The position numbers were made by a program, and so were the translations under genes. A DNA stretch of 64,000 nucleotides from the IMG/VR virus record IMGVR_UViG_3300010376_000003, positions 1 through 64,000 of that record; one strand, written 5' to 3'. This document shows positions 4,400 to 42,394 of this stretch, in pieces; the stretch's first letter is position 1; each line of letters starts with the position of its first letter. The stretch comes from a virus. The notes beneath the pieces are model-generated. The model was given only the letters and a program-made list of their open reading frames with translations, ran no database searches and had not been told where the DNA came from.

Positions 4400-6949
4400 C
4401 TAGGTCACTTCCAGGGTGCCGGTCCCGAAGAGATTCAACGACCCGAGCGGCCAGTTCCCCACGGCACCATCGTGAAGCACATTGATATTCGGGGCGCTGG
4501 CGCCCGCGAAGGGAGCCACGGCCACTCCCGCGACGGCGCCGCCAAGGGTCCCACCAATGGCACTCGCCACGGGGGTGTAGCCGTAACAGGTCCGCAGCAG
4601 CTGGGTACTGGCCGTACCGCCGATGGTCGTCGTCCCCAAATTCCACGCGAACTGCAGCGTGCGGCCAACGAGTCGGTACTTATCCACGGAGACATTCCCC
4701 GCCGCCACGGTCCAGGACATGCTCCCGGTGGCGGAGTAACTCGCCGCACTGAAGGCGGGCGTAATCCACGCGCCCTGTTCGTGCGCGGTCAACACCCAAT
4801 AATTGCCGTTGTTGATAAATGTCGCCGTTCCATGAGCCCCTACCGGCGTCGGCCCACTCGTCACATAGTTGTAAAACCGATTCCCGGCCAACGAGGACGC
4901 ACTCGAGTACGCAAGGTAGACATTGCCACCATTGCCGGTATTCAGGATGGTGAGATGCGACCCAACCACACCACCGGCAATACCCGTCAGGGTGAGATCC
5001 GAGGCGCCACTCCAGATGAGGAAGGTATGGCCCGCCACGCCCACAGCCCAATCATTGATGGCGCCAGTCTGTGTGCTCGTCAGATACGTGTCCACGGGAT
5101 AGGCAAAGGCGCCAGAGCCGTTCAGGAACTGCGCGGCGTTGTTCGGCAGCGTCGGCACCAACCCGCTAATCGCCACCGCACTCGCCGCCGTCAGCCGCCC
5201 TTTCACGTCAACCGTGACGCGCGCGACATGCGTACTGTCGCCATAGGCTGCCGCCGTCACTCCCGTGGTGAGCAGGACCGCATCGGGCACCGTCCCACTC
5301 GCGAGTTGGGAGGCATTGAGCGGCGTCGTCCCGAGCCCGGTCGCCTGCACGGTCCCCTGCACGGTCTGGGGCTGCGTGAAAGTGTTCGCGGCGCTGAGGC
5401 GCGGGATGTTGGCGCTGAGCGTCAGCACCTGGGACCCGCTCCCTGGGCCAGCCGTGCCGTCTCCCGTGAGCTGCGTGATGCCGGTGTCGGGCGGCACCGT
5501 GAACGCCCCCTGGCCGTTGAGGAACTTGGTGGCGTCGTTCGGGTAGGTCGGGACCAGCTGACTGATGGCGATGGTGCCGACTTGGGTGAGGCGCCCGTCG
5601 GCTCCGACCGTGACGACCGGAATGTGGGTGGCGTCGCCGTAGCTGCCGGCGCCCACGCCGGTGCCGGCGATCTGGGTCTGCCGGCTGCCGGCGGTGAAGA
5701 CCGGGCCACTGAGGTCGACGCCCTGGAGCACGCGGCCGTTGGGCGCGTTCTGCCAGCCGGCGAGCATCTGGGTCGCGGGGATGGTCGGGGCCGTGACGAC
5801 ACTCGGGTCCCAGGCGCCCGCCCCGTTGAGGAACTGGGTCGCGTCTTCTGGGTAGGGCGGAAGGGTGGCGAGCGGCTGGCCGACGCGCACCAGGATCGAC
5901 TCGTTGTTGGAGAGCGCGCTGCCGCCGGTCGAGAGGACCGAGACCGCGATGTCGACATAGCCTCCGGCGTCGACGGGGGCGGCGGTCGCCTGGAACTCCC
6001 CGTACTGCGTATGGTCGGTCGTGTTCTGCAGGACCAGGCGCGTGCCGACGGGCGCGAGCATGAGAGTCCAGTAGACATCGAGGTTGTCGGTGGTCTGGGT
6101 CGAGAGGTAGAGGTGCGCGGCGGTCGTCCAGGGATAGGCCTGGTCGAGACGCACCTGTGAGGTACTCGGCGGCGGGGTCGTTGAGGTCGAGAAGCGATAG
6201 GCGAGGTCGGTGCCGGCGCCGGTGGGGCCTTGGGGACCGGTCGGGCCGGTGGGGCCGGGGTCGCCCTGGGGACCCTGAGGACCGGTCGCGCCGGTCGCGC
6301 CGGGGATGCCCTGCGGGCCCTGGGGACCGAGCGCGCCGTCGGCACCAGCAGGTCCAGTGGCACCGGCGGGTCCGGTCGCGCCGGGGAGTCCTTGGGTCCC
6401 GTCGGCCCCTTGCGGACCCGTGGCGCCGGTCGCGCCTTGGGGGCCGGCGGGACCGGTGGCGCCGGTGGCGCCGATAGGACCTTGGGGACCGGTGGCGCCG
6501 GCTGGGCCGGCGGGGCCGGCGGGGCCTTGCGCCATGCCGGCGTCGACCCAGCCGGTCGAGCCCCAGACCCACATGTGCCCGGTGTCGGCGGCGATGTAGG
6601 CGTCGCCGGGCTGGTTGCCGGTGGCTGGGAGGTCGGCGGCGGTCGGGACGGTGCCGAGCACCGTCAGCCCGGTGCCCTGCGGGCCCTGGGGACCTTCGGG
6701 GCCGGTCGGCCCAGGGATGCCTTGAGGACCGGTTGGGCCGGTCGCACCGGTCGCTCCCTGCGGACCAGCGGGACCGGTGGCGCCGTCCGCACCAGCGGGG
6801 CCGGTCGCGCCCTGCGGGCCGGCAGGACCTTCGGGACCAGCGGGGCCAGCGGGGCCGGTCGGGCCGGGCGGCCCTTGCGGACCACTGCCGCCGGAGGCCT
6901 CCGCCTCCACCCCGAGGCCGCCGAGATTCCCGAGCCACGCGTTGGTCAT
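4400..6949 (-). CDS. collagen-like tail fibre protein (849 aa)
   Basis: Two Gly-X-Y blocks (about aa 23-92 and 142-244) are separated by [24 protein letters not shown]. Three copies follow of a fibre repeat, P(T/P)(Y/L)P(N/E)(D/N)A(T/A)(K/Q)FLNG.GAF plus YGD(A/S)TH..(V)VTV...GRLT....AI, then a C-terminal globular domain. Confidence 0.85.
6215..6895 (-). repeat. Gly-X-Y (GGN-CCN-rich) collagen triplet coding repeats, two blocks
   Basis: GGxCCx periodicity is directly visible. This region also generates several long spurious ORFs in other frames and on the other strand. Confidence 0.9.
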
Positions 6950-7104
6950 CGGTGGAAGGGCGACATGAGCCAGCGCCAGAGCCGGCGCAGGGCGAGCCGT
7001 AGGCGGTTCGGGCGGCGCGGCGGCTGGTGGCCGACCTCCAGCACCGGGACGCCCAAGGTGGGGGAACCGGTGCGGTAGACGACGTGGGAGGGTCCGAGCG
7101 ACAT
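6946..7104 (-). CDS. mini-ORF (52 aa) translationally coupled at both ends
   Basis: Hand-translated: [52 protein letters not shown]. Its ATG overlaps the TGA of 7104..7580 (TGATG). Its TGA overlaps the fibre ATG (ATGA). Below the track size cut-off. Confidence 0.45.
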
Positions 7105-7580
7105 CAGGCCCCCGGCGCGGTCGGTGCGCGGTGGAACAGTTCGTCCTGGATGCGGTCCACGACCGCCTGCATCTCGGCCTGGACCGTGCGGCCGCGCTTA
7201 CTGGCGCGGTGGGCGATCTCTTCGAGCTGCCCCGGCGTGAAGGGGACGCGAATGTCGCCGAAGCGCATCGAGGCCAGGCGGTCGACCGCGGCGAGGAAGA
7301 CCTCTGGTGAGCGGGTCGAGCCGAATCCGGTTATTTCCTCCAGGCGATTACAGTCGGCTGGCGAGAGCTGCAGGCCGGCGACGGGTGCCTCCTTGCCGGG
7401 GAGGCGCGCGAGCTGCCAGGCGAGCTTCTGGATCTCGGCCACTAGGGTCGCGGCGGTCTGATTCGGCAGGGCGACCCGACCCTGCTCTGGGTCAGGCGCG
7501 GCTGCGGTCGTCGAAGTAGAGCCCGGCGCTGTCGCTGTCCGCGCTGAGGGCATAGGGGTCGTCTGCGAGGGAGTCGGCAT
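7104..7580 (-). CDS. hypothetical protein (158 aa; start uncertain)
   Basis: ATG at 7580 is preceded by TGGAGG at 6-nt spacing, but it lies 89 nt inside the terL 3' end in another frame. An alternative GTG at 7442 has no SD. The C-terminal part ([39 protein letters not shown]) looks protein-like. Confidence 0.55.
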
Positions 7581-9792
7581 CGTCGGCCTCCAGGTCGTCG
7601 GCCTCTTCGGCCGTCGTGGGTGAATTCCGGTAGTCGGGGATCGGCTGGCTCTTCTCCTGGTTCAGGTGGTCGAGCGCGGCGCGGCGGCGGCGCCGCTCGG
7701 CGATCGGTTCGATCTCGCCGCCGGCCATGCGCCAGGCGACGTAGTAGCCGATGGCCGAGGCCATGACGCAGTCGTCGTGCTGCCCGCGCGCGGCTTCGGC
7801 CTCGCCGATGGTGGTCTGGGTGATGAAGTGGCGCAGCTCCCCGCGGGTGATGGGCGAATTCAGGATGAGGTCGGGGAGCTTGGAGATCTCGTCAAAGGCG
7901 GTGATCGCGCCGTGATAACTGGCGAGCAGGAGCGGCCGGGTGCGCGGCGAGGTCGACCACCCGATGCGCGTCGAGAAGCGCCGCTCGGCTGAGGCCGCGT
8001 CCGCGTATTCCCAGACGTAGAAGTGGGCGTAGCCCAGGTGGAGTTGGAGCGTGTCCTGGGTGGCGAGCCCGTGGTTGTTGGTCTCGATCGCCGCCATCGC
8101 CTCGACGCCGTCCTCGTCGCAGTAGTAGCGCCCGATCGCGTCGCAGATATAGGCAAGGGCTTTCGGGTCGAGCCGGTTGGTCACATACTGCGCGACCTGC
8201 TCGGCCGGCTCCTCGATCGTCGGGTGCCGAATGACGTCGATGACCGAGTAGTCGAGGCCGAGCCCGTCGGAGACGTCCACGCCCATGACGTAGCGCCGGT
8301 GGCCGCGCACCCGCGGGTACTCCCAGATGGCGAGCGCGGAGTGGCGCAGCGAGGGCATCGCCTTCAGCTGGGAGGGCGTGAGGCGGCGGAAGCCGTAGCC
8401 TGGCGGCACCGGGTTGGTGTCGTGCTGGATGGTGGTGCCGAAGCGCGACTCGTGCGGCGCGAGCGGCGGGATGACCCGCTTGGCTTGGAGATCGGGCGAG
8501 AGTCTGCTCTCGCCCTCGCCTCGGCGCAGCGCCGCGATCTCCAGCGCGGGCTCGACAGCCCAGACGTCGCGCAGCGGCCGGCGCGACCCAGCGCGGTCGA
8601 TCTGTTCGAGCTGGTCGAGGGTGAAGACCGAACGCCCCGCGTACTGGAAGCACTCCTGGTCGTCGGCTGGATACTCCTTCAGGAATTTGTATAACTGCCC
8701 CTTCTTCTCGTAGAAGGCGCGCGTACGCTCATACCAATAGAGCTGGTCGCGAGAGAGCGTGACCGTCTTCCCGAACCACTTCGGACTATCCCGCTCGCAC
8801 TTCTCGGCGTGCGCGGTGGTGGTGGAGCTAGGTGACCAGTCGATAGGTGCCGGCAGACTGTACTTACTCGGCTCCGCGCTCCAGGGGATGAAGATGTTAC
8901 TGAAGCGTCCCTCCCCTTCCCCGCTGGCGAGCCAGTGCTTGTGCCACCAGTCACCGGCAAACTCCGCGGTGGCTTCGTAGAGGACCAGCGTATCCGCCGA
9001 GTAGGGAATAGCCGGGAGGAGCGCGGTGTCGAGCTGCTCGGGGTTCTCCCAGGTGGGGAGTTCGGAGATATGGACGACCGAATAGGTCTGGCCGCGACCG
9101 ATCGAGCCCTTCGAGCCTTCCAGGCCGCTCACACTCTGGAGCGCCCCGCGGGTCGACTTCCCCCAGGCGGTTTTCAGGAAGCAGTCGTTGGTGAGGGTCA
9201 GCTCGCGGTTTTTGACGAAGTAGGTCTTCTCAGGCCGCAGGAACCAGGGCAGCTGGTCGTAGATCCGCACGACCATGCGAAAGAGATAGCCCGCCTGCTC
9301 CTCAACGTCCGCACCCGAGAGAGCGCGGATGTGCGGCCGGGTGACCAGGCGGTGCGCGACCAGGGCCTCGGCGAGGGTCGAGACCCCGAGCTGCCGCGCC
9401 TTGAGGACGTTGAGGAGCAGCCCGTCGGGGTTGTCGGTTTCGACGTGCGCCATCTCCAGGCGCGCGAGCTGGTCGAGCACCAGGCGCTGCGACTCCCACA
9501 GCGGGCAGAGGGGCCGGAGCCCGTGGCCTTCTTTGTCGATCCAGACGAAGCGCTCGGCGAAGTAGGGGAAGTCGTAGGCGATGCGGACCTGGGTCGAGCG
9601 AACGAAGTGGGTTTCCTCCTGGGTGAGGGGACGGATCTCTTTGCCCGCTTCCTCGTCGAAGGTCGCCATGACCTGCGCGGTCAGGGCGGCCGAGTCGGCG
9701 ACCGAGTAGCGCGGCATGGCGGTCTTGAACACCTTCTGGTAGGCGATCGAGACCTCCTCCTCGTCTTCGGCGATGAGGTCGGGATGGTACAT
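7492..9792 (-). CDS. terL: terminase large subunit (766 aa)
   Basis: Walker-A-like LKARQLGVSTL, Walker-B-like YSVVHISELPTW, and a C-terminal nuclease-like YVMGVDVSDGLGLDYSVIDVI. The size and its position directly after the small-terminase candidate also fit. Confidence 0.85.
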   Translation of the reverse strand: MYHPDLIAEDEEEVSIAYQKVFKTAMPRYSVADSAALTAQVMATFDEEAGKEIRPLTQEETHFVRSTQVRIAYDFPYFAERFVWIDKEGHGLRPLCPLWESQRLVLDQLARLEMAHVETDNPDGLLLNVLKARQLGVSTLAEALVAHRLVTRPHIRALSGADVEEQAGYLFRMVVRIYDQLPWFLRPEKTYFVKNRELTLTNDCFLKTAWGKSTRGALQSVSGLEGSKGSIGRGQTYSVVHISELPTWENPEQLDTALLPAIPYSADTLVLYEATAEFAGDWWHKHWLASGEGEGRFSNIFIPWSAEPSKYSLPAPIDWSPSSTTTAHAEKCERDSPKWFGKTVTLSRDQLYWYERTRAFYEKKGQLYKFLKEYPADDQECFQYAGRSVFTLDQLEQIDRAGSRRPLRDVWAVEPALEIAALRRGEGESRLSPDLQAKRVIPPLAPHESRFGTTIQHDTNPVPPGYGFRRLTPSQLKAMPSLRHSALAIWEYPRVRGHRRYVMGVDVSDGLGLDYSVIDVIRHPTIEEPAEQVAQYVTNRLDPKALAYICDAIGRYYCDEDGVEAMAAIETNNHGLATQDTLQLHLGYAHFYVWEYADAASAERRFSTRIGWSTSPRTRPLLLASYHGAITAFDEISKLPDLILNSPITRGELRHFITQTTIGEAEAARGQHDDCVMASAIGYYVAWRMAGGEIEPIAERRRRRAALDHLNQEKSQPIPDYRNSPTTAEEADDLEADDADSLADDPYALSADSDSAGLYFDDRSRA

Positions 9793-17433: not shown

Positions 17434-17462
17434 GCCGGCAGCTGCTGAGGCTGCCGGCTTTT
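17434..17462 (+). terminator. rho-independent terminator-like hairpin
   Basis: GCCGGCAGC-TGCTGAG-GCTGCCGGC (9-bp stem) followed by TTTT. Lies 19 nt after stop 17415. Confidence 0.6.
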
Positions 17463-19874: not shown

Positions 19875-20513
19875 ATGGCTGACACGCCCGAGAGGCAGCA
19901 CCGCTACTGCGCGGTCTGCAAGAGCTATCACTACCCCGACAACAGCGAGTGCGACGGGTTGCGCGGCGGCACGACCGACACTAACCCGGCCTTCACGCCG
20001 CCAACTGCTGCAGCGACACCCCAGCACACGCAGCAGAGCAACACGACGGCCCGTCCGGCTGGGCGCTACAGCGTGCCTGACGCGCCGCCAGCAGCGGCGG
20101 CGGCACCGAAGCCGGAGCGCAAGCTGCGCACCATCACCCTGACCGGCCGACCGCCGGTGCGTATCGCCGAGGACGACTGGCCGGTGCTGGCCGAGGCGTC
20201 GACGTGGACCGGCGGCAACGGCTACGAGGCCAACGCGACCCGGCACTGGACCCTCAAGGTCCGGCAGCACCAGACAGACGGCCGCACGATTGTCTACGGG
20301 GCGTACCGCACCAGCTGGCAGGGCGAGCGCGACGCGCGCGGCGGCCAGCTGCTGGCGGCTGGCGCTCACGGGCGCCTGCCGCAGGCCATTCAGGAGGTCT
20401 GCACGGCAATCGGCGCGAGTCCCGTGCTGGCGCAGGACTGCCTCGCCGACCTGCCGCCTGAAGACCTGACCGGCGGGGCGCCTGCGGCGGGCGGCGAGGG
20501 AGGGGCCCGATGA
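19875..20513 (+). CDS. hypothetical protein (212 aa)
   Basis: Track ORF with an N-terminal CAVC motif. Confidence 0.55.
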   Translation: MADTPERQHRYCAVCKSYHYPDNSECDGLRGGTTDTNPAFTPPTAAATPQHTQQSNTTARPAGRYSVPDAPPAAAAAPKPERKLRTITLTGRPPVRIAEDDWPVLAEASTWTGGNGYEANATRHWTLKVRQHQTDGRTIVYGAYRTSWQGERDARGGQLLAAGAHGRLPQAIQEVCTAIGASPVLAQDCLADLPPEDLTGGAPAAGGEGGAR

Positions 20514-20749
20514 GCGCCCCGCCGGTCGCGCCGCCCTTCGACCGCACGACCTGCGCCTGCCCCGAGTGCGTCAGCTGCTGCACCCGGCAGCCCGGCAGCT
20601 GCGTGCCCGGCGACATCGAGGCGATCGCCGCCTACCTGGGAAAGCCGGTGCGCGTGGTGCTGGCCCGCTTCTGCGCCAGCCCCTCGTCTGGGCCCAGAAC
20701 CTCGCCAAGAAAGCCGAGCGGCGCCCCCGGCCGCCCATCGCGGATTTAG
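20510..20749 (+). CDS. CxxCxxCC (YkgJ-like zinc/iron-chelating) N-terminal domain protein, apparently truncated (79 aa)
   Basis: CACPECVSCCTRQPGSCVPGDIEAIAAYLGKP fits the first half of the CxxCxxCC family. The second Cys cluster is missing and the C-terminus is Pro/Ser/Arg-rich. Confidence 0.4.
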   Translation: MSAPPVAPPFDRTTCACPECVSCCTRQPGSCVPGDIEAIAAYLGKPVRVVLARFCASPSSGPRTSPRKPSGAPGRPSRI

Positions 20750-20750
20750 A

Positions 20751-20864
20751 CTAACCCTCGTGTCGGCGTCCCCGTCTGGCGCCCGCCGCTGCGACAGTCG
20801 GCTGGCCCGACCAGCCCGCGACAGCAGCGGCGGGTCTGCAGTCCAGGCGGGGCAACGCCGACAC
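20751..20864 (+). ncRNA. structured repeat element, copy A (long irregular hairpin)
   Basis: P1 is GTGTCGGCGT (20760-69) paired with ACGCCGACAC (20855-64). P2 is CCCCGTCTGG (20770-79) paired with CCAGGCGGGG (20843-52). The apical hairpin is CCGCCGCTGC/GCAGCGGCGG. It starts 2 nt after stop 20749. The ncRNA type is an inference. Confidence 0.45.
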
Positions 20865-20875
20865 ACCTGCTAACG

Positions 20876-21181
20876 ATGACGACACCGAGAAAGGTAGATC
20901 CGTGTATGAGTGTCATGGTGACCGAGCTATACCGTGCGCTGCGTGACGCGCACGTCTCTGAGGAGGTCGCGGTCAAAGCGGCCGAAGCGGTCGTGCCGCG
21001 CAGCGAGGCGGCGACGCGAGCCGACCTCGCGGACCTGCGCGTGCTGATCGAGGGCCTGCGGGGCGACCTGCGGGCCGATATCCAGAAGGCCAAGAACGAC
21101 CTGATCATCTGGGCCGTCGGGTCGGGCATCGCCCTGACTGGCCTCTTCGCGTGGATCGTCAACGCGCTGGTGCGGCGATGA
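20876..21181 (+). CDS. DUF1640-like coiled-coil protein with C-terminal TM helix (101 aa; alternative start 20906)
   Basis: MSVMVTELYRALRDAHVSEEVAVKAAEAV...DLADLRVLIEGLRGDLRADIQKAKNDLIIWAVGSGIALTGLFAWIV resembles the DUF1640 pattern. Confidence 0.55.
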   Translation: MTTPRKVDPCMSVMVTELYRALRDAHVSEEVAVKAAEAVVPRSEAATRADLADLRVLIEGLRGDLRADIQKAKNDLIIWAVGSGIALTGLFAWIVNALVRR

Positions 21182-21300
21182 CTGGCCTGCTCGACGCTCT
21201 CACCACCCCTGGCAGCTGGCATGACGCCATCCTCGTCGGCCTCGCTGTCTTCGCTTACCTGCAGCTGATGGACGCCATCGAGCGGAACGGCAAGCGCTAA
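21178..21300 (+). CDS. mini membrane protein (40 aa)
   Basis: ATGA overlap with the upstream stop. Hand-translated MTGLLDALTTPGSWHDAILVGLAVFAYLQLMDAIERNGKR. Below the track cut-off. Confidence 0.4.
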   Translation: MTGLLDALTTPGSWHDAILVGLAVFAYLQLMDAIERNGKR

Positions 21301-21387
21301 ACTCTCGACAGCCCGGCGTCCCAGTCTGGCGCCTGCCTGGGCATTCCCCAGGTCAGGTATGCAGTCCAAGCTGGGCAACGCCGGGCT
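21301..21387 (+). ncRNA. structured repeat element, copy B
   Basis: P1 is AGCCCGGCGT (21310-19) paired with ACGCCGGGCT (21378-87). P2 is CCCAGTCTGG (21320-29) paired with CCAAGCTGGG (21366-75). The apical hairpin is CCTGGG/CCCAGG. TTT follows. It starts right after stop 21300. Confidence 0.45.
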
Positions 21388-21446
21388 TTCGTACGTACCG
21401 GTAGGTACACAGGATCCCCACTTATTCGGGAGACCACGTCTCTGTT

Positions 21447-21472
21447 CGCGTACGTGCTGCCGGCTGGCGGCG
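21447..21472. repeat. 26-bp direct repeat, copy 1 (CGCGTACGTGCTGCCGGCTGGCGGCG)
   Basis: 25 of 26 nt identical to 21994-22019. Confidence 0.85.
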
Positions 21473-21507
21473 TGCCACCAGGGGCAGCTCTGCTGATGAC
21501 ATACCCG

Positions 21508-21745
21508 CTGAGCTGGCTACTGGCTGAGCTAGGGGGTACCCCTCCTACTCACCGGATTTAGTGAGCTTTCGGGCTAACTGCCCTGTTCCCCATACCTTGG
21601 ACTGTTTCAGTACCCTGAGCTTTCGGTGAGCCTTGTACCGCCGGAGGCTCGTAGGCTCACGGCTCGGGAGATCGTGAGCTTTAGTTTAAATATATGTACG
21701 TACAGGGGATAACCCCTGTAGAGGGGGTATTTCCAGGGGGATATA
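21508..21745. repeat. iteron-like (C/G)TGAGC(T/C) array plus AT-rich patch plus AGGGG(G)(A/T)AT repeats
   Basis: Motif copies at 21508, 21524, 21561, 21615, 21626 and 21674, plus an inverted copy at 21654. AT-rich TTAGTTTAAATATATGTACGTAC at 21681-21703. Palindrome-like CAGGGGATAACCCCTG at 21703-18. AGGGGGTAT at 21722 and CAGGGGGATAT at 21735. Confidence 0.6.
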
Positions 21746-21794
21746 CCGTCTCGCGGAACCGTCTCTTCGCATCAGCTAGCAGGAGGGAGCGCAC

Positions 21795-21992
21795 ATGAAG
21801 CGGTTCGACCAGGGTGTCATCGCGGAGCTGGAGGCCATCGAGGAGCTGCTGCTGAAGCGGCGCGCCGAGGTGGTCGGCCGGGGCGTCAGCACCGACGAAG
21901 CGTTCGGGCGGGTGTTCGCTTTGGGCGCGGTCGATAGTGCTGTCTGGCGGCTGCTGCGCCGGGCGAAGGGCGAGGAAGTCGCTGACGGCTAG
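21795..21992 (+). CDS. hypothetical protein (65 aa)
   Basis: AGGAGGGAG SD 6 nt upstream. The 3' ends converge and overlap by 4 nt with 21989..23047. Confidence 0.5.
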   Translation: MKRFDQGVIAELEAIEELLLKRRAEVVGRGVSTDEAFGRVFALGAVDSAVWRLLRRAKGEEVADG

Positions 21993-23047
21993 TCGCGTAC
22001 GTGCGGCCGGCTGGCGGCGCTCTGCTCGGGCATCAGGTAGCGTAGAGCGCCGCCCTCGAAGTACAGCTCGATTGCGCGGACCACATCGGCCACCGTCACC
22101 AGGTGCATGCAGCGCGGCAGCACGCGCGACGTCTTGGCGTAGCGGTGCGTGACGAGCGGGTCTTTCATGCTCGGGTCTTCCAGCTCGACCACATCCACGC
22201 AGCGCTCCTCCAGGCGGTCGCGGCTGTCGCCGTCGCCGAGGGGGACAACCCGGTTCTTCCAACAGCCCCCGTCGTCACAGCAGCGCAAGGCGCCGACGCG
22301 GTGCAGGAACTGGTGGTGGGGATAGGCGACCCAGTGCGGCGGCTCCCGGCCGCCGGCAATGACCACACACGGGCGGTTCTTCGGGCCGTAGGGGTCGCAG
22401 GGCACGGCAGCGGCCAGGTGCATCAGGAGCGAGATCGGGCTGACGCAGCCCTGACAGTGATAGACCAGGCGTACCAGCTGGCGCAGGTCGGTCTGGCCGC
22501 GCAGGTCGACCACGCCCCTGAGCGGCGGATGCTCGTCCCCCGCGTTGCCGACCTGCACGAACAGGATGCGGCCAGCGAAGTGGTCGATGACCGCCTGGTG
22601 CCGTTCGGCAGCCCACCACTTGACGGTGACATCGAGCTTGCCCCCACTGACCAGCAGCCAGTAGGGCACCTTCTGCCCGACGACCTCCTCGACCTGGGTG
22701 CGCTGGCCCTTCTCTGCCTCGGTCAGGTAGATGTCGCCTCTGTGCGCCGTCGTGCGAATGGTCAGCCCCAGCTTCTCATTGAGGTAGTCGCTGAACCCGT
22801 GCACGAAGTGCCAGGGCTCGTGGTTCGCTTTCCAGATGAGCGGGTAGTCGCACTGGAAGAGTGGCGCCTCGGAGTTAGCCAGCGGCGTGATGTAGGGGTT
22901 GTGCGCCCACAGCTGCGGGCAGGGCGTACGCACGTCGGTGAGGAACTGGCCGGGATAGCTCAGATGCAAGTCGCGCACGGCGGCTGTCATCATCACGATG
23001 TCGCCGGGGCATTGCCAGTTGCGCAGGATCAACTTGCGCTGGGGCAT
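21989..23047 (-). CDS. glycosyltransferase family 9 (heptosyltransferase-like) protein (352 aa)
   Basis: N-terminal KLILRNWQCPGDIVMMTAAVRDLHLSYPG and central LRGQTDLRQLVRLVYHCQGCVSPISLLMHLAAAVP...VVIAGG match GT9 hallmarks (R..GD...P.....P; G.T.L..L..L......D(S/T)G..HLAAA). Confidence 0.65.
   Translation of the reverse strand: MPQRKLILRNWQCPGDIVMMTAAVRDLHLSYPGQFLTDVRTPCPQLWAHNPYITPLANSEAPLFQCDYPLIWKANHEPWHFVHGFSDYLNEKLGLTIRTTAHRGDIYLTEAEKGQRTQVEEVVGQKVPYWLLVSGGKLDVTVKWWAAERHQAVIDHFAGRILFVQVGNAGDEHPPLRGVVDLRGQTDLRQLVRLVYHCQGCVSPISLLMHLAAAVPCDPYGPKNRPCVVIAGGREPPHWVAYPHHQFLHRVGALRCCDDGGCWKNRVVPLGDGDSRDRLEERCVDVVELEDPSMKDPLVTHRYAKTSRVLPRCMHLVTVADVVRAIELYFEGGALRYLMPEQSAASRPHVRD
21994..22019. repeat. 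26-bp direct repeat, copy 2 (CGCGTACGTGCGGCCGGCTGGCGGCG)
   Basis: See 21447-21472. This copy lies in the last codons of the GT9-like gene. Confidence 0.85.
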
Positions 23048-37213: not shown

Positions 37214-38644
37214 ATGACGATGACGACGACGACAAAGAAGGACCATCACGGGGTGCAGAAGACCTGCAAGTGCGGGCGGGAGGCGTGGGCGCACTGCCCC
37301 CACAGCTGGTACCTGCGGTGGAGCTGGAAGGGCCAGTACTGGCAGGTCAAGATCGATGACTACAACGGCGGCACGCACGTCGTCGCCGAGCGCACCGCGC
37401 GCCAGCTGGCCGCGGAGGTTCAGGAGCGCATCAAGGCAGGGACGTACGAGAAGCCGAAGCCGAAGGCGCCGGAGATCGCCGCCATGGCGGTCGACGCCGG
37501 CTTGACGATGGCCGACCTGGGCGCGCTGTTCTTCAAGCACGCGAAGAACGTACGCACCAGCCGCTCCCTGAGCAAGGGGCAGCGGGACAAGTGGGCTGCC
37601 CTGATGGTGACCAAGGTCGTCCGCGCCGGCACGACCACGCCGGTCGCGGTGGGCGACATCCTCGCCAACAGCCTCACCGTAGCCGACATCTCGCGCGTGC
37701 GTGACGCCTACGCGGAGGAGCGCGTCGTGCGGATCGTCGACAAGCGCGGGCGCAGCTACGAGCGGGAGATCGGCGGCACGCGGGCGGCCAACCGCACGCT
37801 CGGCCTGTGGCGGCGGGTCTACGCCTGGGCCGTGCCTCGCGGGGACGTCACGGTGATGCCGTTCATCGAGAAGGGTGTCCCGACCGTGAAGAAGTTCGGC
37901 GAGAAGGGGCGCGAGCGCCGGTTCGCGGACGACGAGCAGGAGCGGCTGGAGGCGGTGATTGCCACCAGCCGGGTGGCGGAGTTGTTCCAGGACGCGTTCG
38001 ACTTCGCGCTGGGGACCTGCTGTCGCAAGAGCGAGGTCTGGAACGTGCGCTGGTACCAGGTTCGTTGGAGTACCAACGAGATCGCGCTGGAGGCCAGCCA
38101 GACCAAGAACGGCCAGGCGCGGGTGGTCCCGATGCTGAAGGAGATCCGCGCGATGCTCGAACGCCGCAAGCTCGACCCGAGCGGCAAGCCGTGGGGGCAG
38201 CTCCAGTACATCTTCCACGATGGCACGGGCGGCAAGCGCGGCGAACTGAAGCGACCCTGGACGCGGGTGCGGCTGCGCGCGGCGGGCTTTACGGGCCAGA
38301 TCTGGGAGCCAGGCACCGGCCGCTTGACGGCCGAGGCGAAGGCCGTGTCGAAGGAGCTGAAGGAGAGCGGCAGGCGGGTGACATGGCACGACATGCGGCG
38401 TGAGGGTGCATCGAGCATGGTCGATGACGGGCTCGACCCGCGCGCCGCGCAGATGCTGCTCGACCACGAGAGCCTGCAGACGACGAGCAAGTATCTGAAG
38501 CTGGGGCGGAAGGCGCTGCACGGCGAGATGCAGCGTATGGAAGAGCGGCGGAAACTAGTACCGGCTAGTACCGGGGAGGGGTCGGAGCAGAAGACGGGCG
38601 AGGGGACCGCTGAGAGCGATCCCGCTAAGTTGAAGGCCTCGTAG
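37214..38644 (+). CDS. int: tyrosine integrase (476 aa)
   Basis: C-terminal catalytic region: ...ALGTCCRKSEVWNVRW...VTWHDMRREGASSMVDDGLDPRAAQMLLDHESLQTTSKYLKLG (R...H-x-x-R...H...Y). Adjacent xis and tRNA-like att core. Confidence 0.9.
   Translation: MTMTTTTKKDHHGVQKTCKCGREAWAHCPHSWYLRWSWKGQYWQVKIDDYNGGTHVVAERTARQLAAEVQERIKAGTYEKPKPKAPEIAAMAVDAGLTMADLGALFFKHAKNVRTSRSLSKGQRDKWAALMVTKVVRAGTTTPVAVGDILANSLTVADISRVRDAYAEERVVRIVDKRGRSYEREIGGTRAANRTLGLWRRVYAWAVPRGDVTVMPFIEKGVPTVKKFGEKGRERRFADDEQERLEAVIATSRVAELFQDAFDFALGTCCRKSEVWNVRWYQVRWSTNEIALEASQTKNGQARVVPMLKEIRAMLERRKLDPSGKPWGQLQYIFHDGTGGKRGELKRPWTRVRLRAAGFTGQIWEPGTGRLTAEAKAVSKELKESGRRVTWHDMRREGASSMVDDGLDPRAAQMLLDHESLQTTSKYLKLGRKALHGEMQRMEERRKLVPASTGEGSEQKTGEGTAESDPAKLKAS
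38555..38574. repeat. tandem CTAGTACCGG x2 (putative integrase arm-type sites, left arm)
   Basis: Perfect 10-nt tandem duplication inside the last codons of int. The same 10-mer forms the palindrome at 38792-38807. Confidence 0.6.
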
Positions 38645-38892: not shown

Positions 38893-39156
38893 GTGACGAC
38901 AAAACCGACACAAGACAGCGGCTGGGACACCCCGATCGACGAACGGCAGAGCGAGTGGTACCGCTTCCTCCAGGAGATCGAGCAGCTGCTGCCTGATGCG
39001 CAGTGGGCGGCTGAGACGCTCGAAGGCATCCAGGAGACGGTCGAGCGCACCAGGACGGTGAGTGAGGGGCAGCGGCGGGCGGTCAGGAACATCGAGGCGG
39101 CGAAGGACCGGACGCCGCGGGGCAGCCGGCGGCGCTACGAGGGCTGGCGGCGCTGA
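38893..39156 (+). CDS. hypothetical protein (87 aa)
   Basis: GTG start with GAAGGAGGGGGG upstream. Preceded by an 8-bp-stem hairpin, GTGACCCC...GGGGTCAC (38848-38878). Confidence 0.55.
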   Translation: MTTKPTQDSGWDTPIDERQSEWYRFLQEIEQLLPDAQWAAETLEGIQETVERTRTVSEGQRRAVRNIEAAKDRTPRGSRRRYEGWRR

Positions 39157-39368
39157 TGCGGCGCAAGGAGACCGAGACCATCCTGGTGCCGCACGAGTAC
39201 ATGCTGCTGGCCGACCGGCGTACCGACGCGATCGTGCGCCGCTGCTGCGCGGACCAGAACATCGTCGAGAGCGTCGCCAGGAGCTGCTACCTGCAGGGCG
39301 TGTGGGACGGGGTCCAGGTGGCTATCGCGTACCCGGAGCTGCTGCAGCTGTTGAAGGAGCAGAGCTGA
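39156..39368 (+). CDS. hypothetical protein (70 aa)
   Basis: TGATG coupling at both ends. Confidence 0.5.
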   Translation: MRRKETETILVPHEYMLLADRRTDAIVRRCCADQNIVESVARSCYLQGVWDGVQVAIAYPELLQLLKEQS

Positions 39369-42300
39369 TGCGGCTCCCACACCCTGCCGGCTGCCGCGGG
39401 TGCGTGCTCGACCAGAAGGGCGAGGGCTTCGCGCCGGCTGACGGGCCGCCCGAGAGCTGGCTCCTGTTGGTTGGCGAGAGCCTCGGCTACACCGAGGCCC
39501 TCACAGGTCGCCCGTTCATGGGCGATGCGGGTGGCATGCTGACGCGTCTGCTCAACCTCCTGGGTTGGCGGAGAGACGCGATCCGCGTTCACAACGTCGT
39601 CAGCTGCCACCCGCCCGGCGATTGGTTCGACGAGAGGGCGCCCTGGTACTACCCGGCGATGGGGCACTGCCCCTACCTGCGGGAGACCCTGAAGGAGCCG
39701 CACCGGGTCGTGGTGCCGATGGGGATGGCGGCGCTCAGGCGAGTGATGCACCTGGAGCACCGGAAGAAGGTCAGGGTCCAGGACTTCCACGGGGCCAAGC
39801 TGCGCGACCCGAAGAACCGCTTCTGGGTCGTGCCGACCTTCCACCCGAGCTACCTGCAGCGGGGCGCGCACAACCTCATTGGCACCGTGCTGTGGGACCT
39901 GCAGCGAGCTGAGGAGCTGCGCGAGCAGTTCACGGTGCCGGTGGAACCAGGGAACCTGGTGATTGACCCGCCGGTCGAGTGGTTCAAGGCCTGGGTCGAC
40001 CAGGTGGTCGCCGCGAGGACGGCAGACCCCGCCGCCTACCCGATCAGCAGCGACGTCGAGACACCGGACAAAGCCGGCGGCCAGGACGAAGGGGAGATCG
40101 GCGCCGACGACACCTCCTTCCAGCTCCTGCGGCACAACGTCGCCTGCCACCCGGATGAGGGCATCACCGTCCCGCACGACGGGCTGTACCTCGACCACCT
40201 GCAGCGGCTGTATGCGAGCCCTGGATGCATATGGATGTGGAACAGAGAGTACGACTTCGCCAGGCAGGTCAGAGCCGGCCTGATGAAGGAGGAGGACTCG
40301 ACGCGGGTGGTCGACCTCATGTGGCTGTGGCACTTCCTGCAGAGCGACGTGCCGCGGGGGCTCGGGTTCGTCGCGCCCTTCTACAGCAGCTGGGGACCGT
40401 GGAAGCACCTGGCCGATACCGACCCCGCGAGGTACGCCGCCATCGATGCGCTGCAGACGCACCGGGTCGGCTTCGGGGTGACGAGAGACCTCTACAGCCA
40501 GGGCATGTACGCCATGGCGATGCGGCACACCCACGAGCTGCTGACGAAAGTGCTGAGGCCAGCGCAGCTGGTGGGGCTGGAGGTCGACCGGCAGCAGCTG
40601 GCGGTGTTCCACGGGGAACTGGCCGGGAAGGCGCGCCAGCGGCTGGGGACGCTGCAGGCGTGCATCCCGGAGGCGCTGCAGCCGCTGACGCCGAAGGAGG
40701 GGCTGAAGAAGCCGCCGGCTGCCGAGATCCTGCACGTCAAGGCGAGCGCGTTCACCAGGAAGGGAAAACTGCGAGCCGGGAAACCGGTGAGCGAGATCAA
40801 ACAGGAGCTGTATGCCAAAGCGCAGGTTATCGAGAAGATCGTCCTCCGGGAGGTCCTCGTCTGCCGACGCTGCGGAGCTGCAGAAGTTAGTCGACGCCAT
40901 CGCTGTGATCGACTGCCTGGTGGACATGGCGAGCCACGGGGCGAACAACATCCTGATGCAGCTGGAGAACTGGATCTCTCCGTTGCCTCCGTCACGCGCT
41001 GGTTCTGGAAAGAACCATTCAACCCTGACTCGGTCCCCCAAGTCCTCGCCTACATCAAGCACCGGAAGCACAAGCCAGGGCGGGCAAAGAAAACCCAGAG
41101 TGAAGAAAGCACCAATCGTGAAACATTAGAGCGGCTCGCGAGAACGACCGGCGACCCGTTCTACTCGGCGCTGCTCGACTACCGGGCGATCGGCAAGGTC
41201 CAGGGGACGTATGTCGAGGGGACGCTGCGGCGGCTCGACGACGAGGGCCGGCTGCACCCGGTACCGACCTTCCGCCCGAGCACCATGCGGCTGAGCTATC
41301 ACTCCCCGAACATCACCAACGTCGTGGCCGATAAAGGCGGCGCCGACGGCCTGGCCGCAGGCTTTCGGAAGTGCATCCGCGCCAACGCGCTGTGCCGGCT
41401 GCTGGAGGTCGACTTCGCGGCGATCGAGGCGGTCGAGACGGGGTGGTGCGCCAGGGACAGGGAGTACTACCGGCTGGCGAAGCTGGGCGTCCACGCGGCC
41501 CTGGTGACGCACGCGATTGGCAAACCGTACGACCCGGCGGCGAGCGACGAGGAGCTGCGGGAGCTGTTCCAGAAGGTGAAGAAGGAGCACCCGCAGGTCT
41601 ACGACCCGGCGAAGCGCTACGTGCATGGCCGGAGCTACGGGCTGACCATCGCCGGGATGCAGCTGCAGTTCCCGCACCTGTTCCCGACGCAGGCAGTGGC
41701 CGAGAAGTACGCCAGGCTCTTCGAGAAGATGGCGCCGGGGGTGAGCAGCTGGCAGCAGGCGCAGCAGCAGCTGGCGAGCCGGCAGCACTACCTGGGCGGG
41801 GAGACGCACCCCTTCAGATATAAGCACTGGTTCTGGAGCGTCTACACCTACAAGCGGCTGACGGTGACGCAGTACTACCGGCTGGTGGCGAAGTTCCACA
41901 GGCTAGGACAGCCGCCACCGGTGGTGGACATCAACGGCCAGTGGTTCCGCGTCAGCCTGGGCGAGGATGGGAAGCGGGTGTTGGCATTCGACCCGCAGTC
42001 GATCGCAGCCGGCGTGCTGAAAGAAGCGATGCTGCGGCTGTTCGGGGACAAGACCGCGCCGAACTACATCGGGGATGCGTATTTCGGGAAGACGCCGCTC
42101 AGGGCCCCGATCCACGACAGCCTGCTGCTCGAAGTGCCCGACAGCCAGTGGGACCGCGTGTTCACGGCGGTGTGTACCGAGATGCAGCGACCGGTCGTGC
42201 AGCAGCCGCTGCCGGCGAGCTGGGGAGAGGGCGCGGCGGGCGGGTATGTGGCGATCGGGATTGCGGCGAAGGCGGGGCCGAACTGGGCGAAGATGGAGAC

Positions 42301-42394
42301 GCTCGCGGTCCCGAGCTACGGCGAGGAGTGGCACGCCGAGCCGGTCGAGGAGGAGGATGGGGAGGACTGGAGTGACCTGCAGCGGGTGATATGA
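39368..42394 (+). CDS. polA: family A DNA polymerase with N-terminal family-4-UDG-like domain and 3'-5' exonuclease domain (1008 aa)
   Basis: UDG-like: CRGCVLD...LLVGESLGYTEALTGRPFMGDAGGML...VHNVVSCHPPG...TFHPSYLQRG. Exonuclease: ISSDVETPD, WMWNREYDF, RYAAIDAL. Polymerase motif A is LLEVDFAAIEAVE, motif B is KRYVHGRSYGLT and motif C is PIHDSLLLEV. The start at 39368 overlaps the upstream TGA. Confidence 0.88.
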   Translation: MRLPHPAGCRGCVLDQKGEGFAPADGPPESWLLLVGESLGYTEALTGRPFMGDAGGMLTRLLNLLGWRRDAIRVHNVVSCHPPGDWFDERAPWYYPAMGHCPYLRETLKEPHRVVVPMGMAALRRVMHLEHRKKVRVQDFHGAKLRDPKNRFWVVPTFHPSYLQRGAHNLIGTVLWDLQRAEELREQFTVPVEPGNLVIDPPVEWFKAWVDQVVAARTADPAAYPISSDVETPDKAGGQDEGEIGADDTSFQLLRHNVACHPDEGITVPHDGLYLDHLQRLYASPGCIWMWNREYDFARQVRAGLMKEEDSTRVVDLMWLWHFLQSDVPRGLGFVAPFYSSWGPWKHLADTDPARYAAIDALQTHRVGFGVTRDLYSQGMYAMAMRHTHELLTKVLRPAQLVGLEVDRQQLAVFHGELAGKARQRLGTLQACIPEALQPLTPKEGLKKPPAAEILHVKASAFTRKGKLRAGKPVSEIKQELYAKAQVIEKIVLREVLVCRRCGAAEVSRRHRCDRLPGGHGEPRGEQHPDAAGELDLSVASVTRWFWKEPFNPDSVPQVLAYIKHRKHKPGRAKKTQSEESTNRETLERLARTTGDPFYSALLDYRAIGKVQGTYVEGTLRRLDDEGRLHPVPTFRPSTMRLSYHSPNITNVVADKGGADGLAAGFRKCIRANALCRLLEVDFAAIEAVETGWCARDREYYRLAKLGVHAALVTHAIGKPYDPAASDEELRELFQKVKKEHPQVYDPAKRYVHGRSYGLTIAGMQLQFPHLFPTQAVAEKYARLFEKMAPGVSSWQQAQQQLASRQHYLGGETHPFRYKHWFWSVYTYKRLTVTQYYRLVAKFHRLGQPPPVVDINGQWFRVSLGEDGKRVLAFDPQSIAAGVLKEAMLRLFGDKTAPNYIGDAYFGKTPLRAPIHDSLLLEVPDSQWDRVFTAVCTEMQRPVVQQPLPASWGEGAAGGYVAIGIAAKAGPNWAKMETLAVPSYGEEWHAEPVEEEDGEDWSDLQRVI

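Follow-up and report, generated by a model that had tools for sequence, protein, structure and literature searches.

Introduction

The genome organisation of bacteriophage T7, with hairpins between the genes of its early mRNA, is the background to the pair of elements that we describe here. These elements are two long, related hairpins, copy A (20751-20864) and copy B (21297-21391), which lie in the same orientation on the + strand of IMG/VR record IMGVR_UViG_3300010376_000003. We analysed positions 1 to 64,000 of this record, called the window in the following, and it represents a temperate tailed phage from a soil metagenome. Stable hairpins between genes are known from several other systems. 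REP/BIME elements, situated just past stop codons, can block 3′ exonucleases and influence the expression of the upstream gene. The attC sites of integrons are imperfect hairpins of 57-141 nt that follow the open reading frames (ORFs) of cassettes and conserve structure above sequence. Phage HK022 carries two paralogous structured RNAs, putL and putR, that differ by compensatory changes. In T7, several related intercistronic hairpins (e.g. R1.1) serve as ribonuclease III (RNase III) sites in one polycistronic mRNA, each with an upper and a lower helix totalling two or more turns and an asymmetric internal loop between them. RNase III substrates need about two helical turns, to which short helices may contribute by coaxial stacking, and internal loops, as in T7, confine the enzyme to cleavage of one strand, leaving a protective 3′ hairpin (PMC1540722). 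In T4-type phages, finally, PeSLs are repeated short non-coding stem-loop motifs that flank small accessory ORFs in a plastic region (PMC2839356, PMC4122927). The observation that we report is genuine and statistically non-random, and most probably it reflects nothing more than the usual punctuation of a phage mRNA, here by a hairpin of no described family.

Results and Discussion

Both RNAs fold in the same order, namely P1 (10 bp), a CA bulge on the 3′ side, P2 (10 bp), an internal loop, P3 and a tip. The parts are located as follows, with GC3 denoting the GC content at third codon positions.

20751-20759, + strand: 5′ lead of copy A, CTAACCCTC, 9 nt; its TAA at 20752-54 closes the GC3-favoured frame
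20760-20864, + strand: hairpin A, 105 nt, 131 bits with covariance model R1
20760-69 with 20855-64: P1 of hairpin A, followed by the CA bulge at 20853-54 and by P2, 20770-79 with 20843-52
20780-81 opposite 20835-42: internal loop of hairpin A, CG against TCTGCAGT
20782-92 with 20824-34: P3 of hairpin A, closed by a variable tip at 20793-20823
21297-21309, + strand: 5′ lead of copy B, CTAAACTCTCGAC, 13 nt; its TAA at 21298-21300 is the stop of the 40-aa gene
21310-21387, + strand: hairpin B, extendable by 3 bp to 21391, 108 bits with model R1
21310-19 with 21378-87: P1 of hairpin B, followed by the CA bulge at 21376-77 and by P2, 21320-29 with 21366-75, with a C.A mismatch at 21326/21369
21330-31 opposite 21358-65: internal loop of hairpin B, CG against TATGCAGT
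21332-41 with 21347-57: P3 of hairpin B, T21353 bulged, with the apical loop at 21342-46

P1 and P2 together make a 20-bp lower helix with a 2-nt bulge, which reproduces in both folds the two 10-bp helices proposed in a first-pass annotation of this DNA, and P3 contributes 10-11 bp more. One U.G pair occurs within P2 of both copies, and the foot of hairpin B is extended by pairing of CGA 21306-08 to TCG 21389-91. The copies are direct repeats with a spacing of 550 bp. They have in common a 24-nt 5′ core, CGGCGTCCC(C/A)GTCTGGCGCC(C/T)GCC (20764-20787 and 21314-21337), and a 28-nt 3′ core, GGT(C/A)TGCAGTCCA(G/A)GC(G/T)GGGCAACGCCG (20833-20860 and 21356-21383). Window shuffles give 0.00 matches to the 3′ core by chance, and the cores and folds thus confirm the two + strand copies that had been annotated. 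An assembly artefact is ruled out by a second, independent assembly, which contains both copies unchanged.

The internal loop is asymmetric (2x8) and conserved, with 5′ CG facing 3′ U(C/A)UGCAGU. It had been drawn as CGCC against GT(C/A)TGCAGT; its conservation holds, but the loop is really CG against T(C/A)TGCAGT, narrower than first described because the CC/GG pairs extend the apical stem. Nor is the apical hairpin entirely replaced between the copies, as had been thought: the first six P3 pairs are conserved, with an additional C-G to T-A compensatory change, and the tip beyond them is unalignable. K-turn and loop-E motifs in the internal loop were ruled out by inspection. Overall, sequence identity is ~90% across the lower stem, the loop strand of 8 nt and the CA bulge; the base of the stem and the tip are wholly different.

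Both hairpins are exceptionally stable. The minimum free energies are -81.4 kcal/mol for A and -56.7 kcal/mol for B (z = -6.7 and -6.9), and 0/200 shuffles fold as well. In a sliding fold of the window (110-nt windows, both strands, regressed on G+C), A and B are the top two GC-corrected + strand structures, with residuals of about -24 kcal/mol or ~4.4 standard deviations. The + strand folds slightly better than the - strand (-74.7 kcal/mol for A, -55.1 kcal/mol for B), and by direct reading it carries three G.U wobbles vs one on the - strand, a 3:1 ratio of G.U over A.C. The minus strand and single-stranded DNA also fold well, and the DNA folds are as significant as the RNA folds.

For the pairing, 26 pairs were defined on the two-sequence alignment, six of which are changed on both sides and still pair. 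Four of these form the foot of P1, and P2 (C-G to A-U) and P3 (C-G to U-A) contribute one each, so that the compensatory changes annotated earlier at the outer P1 and at P2 position 4 are among them. Copy B has two uncompensated defects, a C.A in P2 and a C.U in P3. When the 3′ partner is slid by 1-3 columns, pairing falls from 96% to 26-47%. We then placed an equal number of random substitutions on copy A in 200,000 simulated trials, and none of these gave at least six compensated doubles over all 26 pairs (0/200,000, P < 5e-6). For the 22-bp conserved core alone, with 6 substitutions and 2 compensated doubles, the simulation gives P = 0.0045. This is the safer figure, because the four outer P1 pairs may lack strict homology, with 3 nt between the conserved CTCG and the core in A vs 6 nt in B. 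The base pairing is maintained, with support from two sequences only since the collections searched hold no relatives. The idea of selection on structure rather than on sequence is consequently borne out for the pairing, but the highly similar core sequences do not agree with its second half, and the mosaic of a conserved core and a differing base and tip points to a sequence-specific core as well.

Both hairpins are intercistronic and on the sense strand, beginning 5-10 nt past stop codons, within a block of small, co-oriented + strand early genes. Their neighbours are the following.

19875-20513: 212-aa gene, just upstream of the Cys-rich gene
20510-20754, + strand: small Cys-rich gene, 79-aa call with its TAG end at 20749, stopping 5-10 nt ahead of hairpin A
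20906-21181, + strand: bracketed gene 1, 91 aa from the ATG at 20906 (101 aa from 20876), a coiled-coil protein with a C-terminal transmembrane segment, starting 41 nt past hairpin A
21178-21300, + strand: bracketed gene 2, a 40-aa hydrophobic mini-protein with an ATGA overlap with gene 1, its stop codon falling inside the copy B lead

The reading frame of the conserved core differs between copies A and B, and no frame across the hairpins has a GC3 excess, unlike the flanking genes. The elements are therefore non-coding, and a coding role for the hairpins is ruled out. Both copies had been described as starting right after a stop codon. This is correct for B, where the TAA of the 40-aa gene lies in the lead; in front of A, the called 79-aa gene already stops at TAG 20747-49, ahead of the TAA in CTAAC. 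Similarly, the shared flank CTAA(C/A)C..CTCG is present in both copies but can be aligned only with a 1-nt indel (A CTAACCCTCG vs B CTAAACTCTCG). The GC3 of the 79-aa ORF falls from ~1.0 to ~0.75 after ~20660, while the +2 frame climbs to 0.85-0.89 and ends with TAA 20752-54. The ORF may therefore contain a 1-nt indel or frameshift near CAGCCCCTCG which, if real, means that a true stop codon opens both hairpin leads.

The position at the stop codons brings protein-binding or recoding functions into consideration, since both hairpins begin inside the ribosome footprint of the stop codon. A hairpin at such a site could influence whether ribosomes on the upstream gene terminate, read through or stall, and from the 79-aa ORF across hairpin A into the 101-aa ORF there is one frame, broken solely by TAG 20747. 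An open frame over 126 nt is nevertheless ~50% likely by chance at this GC (an estimate), and the hairpin-encoded peptides are in differing frames between the copies, so that no product is conserved. Alternatively, antitermination or control of translation could depend on a phage or host protein that recognises the CA bulge together with the loop strand U(C/A)UGCAGU. Conservation is seen at the unpaired nucleotides where neighbouring stem parts vary, and the phage encodes a cold-shock-domain RNA-binding protein, but recent common ancestry may alone explain the loop conservation and the position is not promoter-proximal, unlike put or nut. The HK022 put RNAs share with A and B the occurrence of two paralogous structured RNAs in one phage that differ by compensatory changes. 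However, put is a two-stem-loop element directly downstream of an early promoter, whereas here each element is a single extended hairpin with coding sequence rather than a promoter upstream, and one copy stands at the operon end. Overall we give regulatory or recoding roles of this kind only a slim chance.

We tentatively favour intercistronic processing or 3′ protection by hairpins of the T7 RNase III-site type, a reading that falls somewhat short of an even chance. The two elements would be paralogous cis-acting RNA hairpins in a rightward polycistronic early mRNA, each forming once the ribosome has cleared the stop codon in front of it. Two or more turns of double-stranded RNA would be offered by P3 and by the lower helix of ~20 bp in which P1 and P2 are coaxial, with the conserved loop of 2 nt vs 8 nt between the two. 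By analogy with T7, host RNase III or another double-strand-specific factor may make a single cut within the long loop strand or next to it. Such a cut would leave the upstream message with a protective 3′ hairpin, detached from the downstream message. The membrane-protein pair of 91 aa and 40 aa would then form a separate unit of expression and decay, and copy B would also end the operon.

Our preference draws on the sense-strand placement of the elements 5-10 nt past stops, on the slightly better folding of the + strand and on its 3:1 excess of G.U over A.C. It draws further on two or more turns of quasi-continuous helix broken by an asymmetric loop; located between cistrons, P1 + P2 and P3 supply the approximately two turns of double-stranded RNA, with coaxial stacking, that RNase III substrates have. 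A last point is the missing U-tract, while a textbook terminator is present elsewhere in the genome (17434-17458). Structure, position and compensation are shown here, whereas action as RNA, cleavage or protection, the nuclease and any effect on expression are inferred. With the T7 sites the two hairpins share their occurrence as related intercistronic hairpins in one polycistronic phage mRNA and the arrangement of upper helix, asymmetric loop and lower helix. They differ in having no sequence or Rfam relationship to them, in length (78-105 nt here vs ~60 nt), in a far higher G+C content and in being present in two copies only. Among the roles put forward in the first-pass annotation, RNase III-type processing or stability hence fits the anatomy best; a canonical terminator does not, as there is no U-tract, and put disagrees in architecture and position.

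Four points weigh against processing or protection. With two copies and no homologue, covariation cannot separate selection on RNA from the maintenance of a palindrome at the DNA level; the - strand and single-stranded DNA fold well too; and the sequence conservation at paired core positions exceeds the needs of a generic double-stranded RNA substrate. Moreover, cleavage is not guaranteed, since the E. coli enzyme has a bias against some G-C-rich box sequences.

What follows each hairpin bears on transcription termination. Copy A is followed by ACCUGCUAACG and copy B by UUUCGUACG, and a simple terminator scan calls neither. It calls instead the stem at 17434-17458 with TTTTCC, from which we conclude that the long hairpins are not the ordinary terminator type of this phage. 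That canonical intrinsic terminator, GCCGGCAGC-loop-GCUGCCGGC then UUUUCC, lies 19 nt past a + strand gene and between two + genes, showing that the phage also uses ordinary terminators. Copy B could still end the rightward early operon, with copy A as a partial terminator or attenuator that lowers the two downstream genes; we regard this as unlikely, and as most plausible for B. B comes last in the + gene block and is followed by TTT. Downstream come ~400 nt of non-coding, partly A+T-rich DNA, then a 65-aa ORF and then the convergent - strand block. Both strands fold. On the other hand, A has no U-tract and B has three U only, one of them paired; the stems of 35-45 bp are far above the size of intrinsic terminators; A lies 41 nt ahead of a gene that has no visible promoter of its own; and the conserved internal loop and bulge serve no role in termination.

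A 27-nt direct repeat is found at 21446-21472 and 21993-22019 (26/27 bases matching), the second copy being the final nine codons of a 352-aa glycosyltransferase-9-like gene on the - strand. This suggests that the 547 bp between the repeats are a separately inserted later module, without which hairpin B would lie between convergent genes. B would then originally have been ~60 nt from the 3′ end of the 352-aa gene, and could once have been a bidirectional terminator between them.

Searches for further copies were made at several levels. With filters off, covariance model R1 finds only A and B in the window, no match elsewhere on the contig has an E-value below 0.07, and the ~69.8 kb genome thus contains exactly two copies. 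A candidate third copy at 21942 (a 13-mer, 12/13 bases) was ruled out, as it lies inside a coding region and forms no hairpin. Rfam 15 gives 0 matches in the whole window at the gathering threshold and, for 20650-21800 at E <= 10, noise matches only (12-18 bits vs thresholds of 38-100); a tRNA/tmRNA scan found none. In IMG/VR, exact-pattern scans with both halves together and with each half singly returned chance matches only, after inspection. In the JGI metagenomes both halves together gave 0 matches and the 3′ core 79 loci, where the best upstream match to the 5′ half reaches 13/18 specified positions. In one genome for each of 185,579 GTDB species, an exact scan for the 3′ core retrieved 61 loci, all of which the covariance model turned down (best E = 0.11), and blastn against GenBank phages and PLSDB plasmids gave 24-37-nt chance matches only, inside coding genes. 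A threefold occurrence of the 3′ core 23-mer in a Planctomycetales metagenome-assembled genome (MAG; L019, CAZTQK010000182.1) was rejected as chance, the sequence being unstructured (z = +0.84). This contig carries, at 4959-7194, tandem duplicated genes for PEP-CTERM trypsin-like proteases with identical 5′ untranslated regions that contain TTGCAGTCCAACAGGGGCAACGCC.

Relatives were also sought through the neighbouring genes. With filters off, R1 has no copy in eight loci (seven distinct contexts) with homologues of the upstream 212-aa gene (L067-L071, L152, L154, L155; one is a Phycisphaeraceae MAG), and a default-filter search found no R1 match in the contig that has the only gene 1 homologue (L005). 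Protein searches with gene 1 and the upstream gene returned essentially self only, and no IMG/VR relatives were found via two neighbouring proteins. Neither IMG/VR nor the GenBank phages contain a close relative in which indels at the hairpin sites could be sought. The scans of public collections demanded exact matches to 17-25 specified bases, so that diverged relatives could be missed in this barely sampled lineage. The first-pass annotation had staked its proposal on further homologues that preserve the pairings; no such homologue was found in any collection, by exact-pattern or small-model searches in an undersampled lineage. Given two copies, one genome and no relatives in the databases searched, the function is beyond the reach of comparison.

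The restriction to two copies in one genome, the lack of a family anywhere searched and the DNA folds that equal the RNA folds in significance would all be compatible with a functionless duplicated palindrome, tolerated between genes, whose self-complementarity is kept by template switching or gene conversion between the arms. We consider this highly unlikely. The sharply mosaic divergence, with an alignable core and an unalignable base and tip, argues for constraint on the core; the copies are the two most extreme + strand structures in the sliding fold of the window; and the exact position next to a stop codon recurs in both.

The two bracketed genes look like accessory genes. The label DUF1640-like, earlier given to gene 1, could not be retained, as there is no such Pfam match even at E <= 5. 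Its sole non-self homologue (69% identity) lies on a 1-kb soil contig, which has an A+T-rich upstream region in the hairpin's place and another downstream gene. The ENA metagenome contig ERZ27264385 (k141_7794997), 69,836 bp, matches the window and differs from it by 2 bases in 21 kb (C>G and G>T, at window 21044 and 21050, corresponding to L004 12004 and 11998). The variant at 21050 puts a TAG stop inside the 91/101-aa gene 1, which is either dispensable in the population or the variant is an assembly error.

These observations bear on the possibility that A and B are module-boundary or recombination sequences at the DNA level, marking the arrival of the two-gene module, which would be compatible with a role as RNA. 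They could be PeSL-like homology patches for the exchange or loss of accessory genes, cruciform or single-strand recombinase sites, or a small mobile palindrome. The direct repeats bracket two small genes, the homologue of gene 1 has another context and no hairpin, the stop codon variant suggests dispensability, the adjacent segment looks inserted as well, and the single-stranded DNA folds of both strands are strong. We nevertheless judge a DNA-level function to be quite unlikely, for reasons that emerge from the comparison with known elements.

PeSLs are a precedent, as repeated stem-loop motifs through which the small accessory ORFs that they flank could be gained or lost (PMC2839356, PMC4122927). 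A PeSL, however, combines a strong sigma-70 promoter with a terminator, and a genome has many of them, clustered in hyperplastic regions. The present genome as a whole has just two copies, the sequences flanking the hairpins are mutually unrelated, and 14-27 kb contains no sigma-70-like promoter match, although the consensus may not be the host's; simple homology patches, furthermore, need no compensatory changes. In the case of attC the likeness lies in the position after ORFs, in a central part that varies and in paired boxes with unpaired or extrahelical bases between them. The R′′ RYYYAAC and R′ GTTRRRY boxes are absent; P1 reads GTGTCGGCGT/ACGCCGACAC in copy A and AGCCCGGCGT/ACGCCGGGCT in copy B, neither of which contains an AAC/GTT pair, and a GACTAAC upstream of the hairpin A stem has no GTT partner. 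There is no adjacent integron integrase and no cassette array but two sites only, in an early operon context, and the sole recombinase seen is the phage tyrosine integrase 16 kb off. A miniature inverted-repeat transposable element (MITE) or insertion sequence (IS) does not fit either, as the outermost stem, the would-be terminal inverted repeat, is the least conserved part with 0/8 identical bases, and there is no shared target-site duplication; CTAAC stands on both sides of A (20751, 20870), with no such repeat at B. REP/BIME elements resemble A and B as stable intergenic hairpins just downstream of a stop codon. They are ~35 nt long, with hundreds of chromosomal copies, a conserved 5′ tetranucleotide and RAYT-based mobilisation, whereas the phage element has 80-105 nt, two copies and no occurrence in bacterial genomes, as scanned for 185,579 species.

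Two further regions close to the hairpins deserve mention. The stretch 21540-21795 is non-coding and A+T-rich (~52% GC) and has features that may be regulatory: it contains three copies of GTGAGCTTT (21561, 21615, 21674), a run TTTAGTTTAAATATATGTACGTAC and a perfect palindrome CAGGGGATAACCCCTG (21703-21718), and a strong AGGAGG ribosome-binding site precedes the 65-aa ORF (21795-21992). It could be an operator/promoter region or a replication origin beside the AAA_25 gene. The C-terminal half of the 212-aa protein has ~80 homologues of 115-150 aa from soil and freshwater metagenomes and the Phycisphaeraceae MAG, and as no Pfam family covers it, we regard it as a widespread uncharacterised phage domain.

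Besides a Dda-like helicase, the cold-shock-domain protein and tail fibres, the window encodes the following.

7492-9792, - strand: large terminase
37214-38644: phage-type tyrosine integrase, 476 aa, 16 kb from the hairpins
39062-42394: DNA polymerase

Contig k141_7794997 is circularly permuted relative to the window, and its coordinate equals the window coordinate minus 1870, so that the window begins ahead of its first base. A second assembly has 69,818 bp. The phage genome is probably complete at ~69.8 kb and circularly permuted or terminally redundant.

Conclusion

In summary, we describe two paralogous hairpins in one phage genome for which we tentatively prefer mRNA processing or 3′ protection. 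It is very unlikely, but worth stating, that they belong to an undescribed class of phage cis-elements, recognisable by a CA bulge and a conserved 2x8 loop with a 10-bp helix between the two, that does more than serve as a nuclease substrate. This would be a phage-protein site that controls read-through, termination or translation at the stop, a self-processing RNA, or an attC-like folded single-strand site for cassette swapping, and the uniqueness of the pair would then reflect an unsampled phage lineage, possibly one that infects Planctomycetota. The practical value is limited by one genome, two copies, an uncultured host and no relatives, and a family cannot be defined yet. The pair of hairpins marks the edges of an accessory two-gene module and is a small, testable case linking regulatory hairpins with gene shuffling in phages. 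If processing or protection is confirmed, a high-G+C soil phage of an almost unsampled lineage would punctuate its early mRNA in the manner of T7 with an unrelated hairpin.

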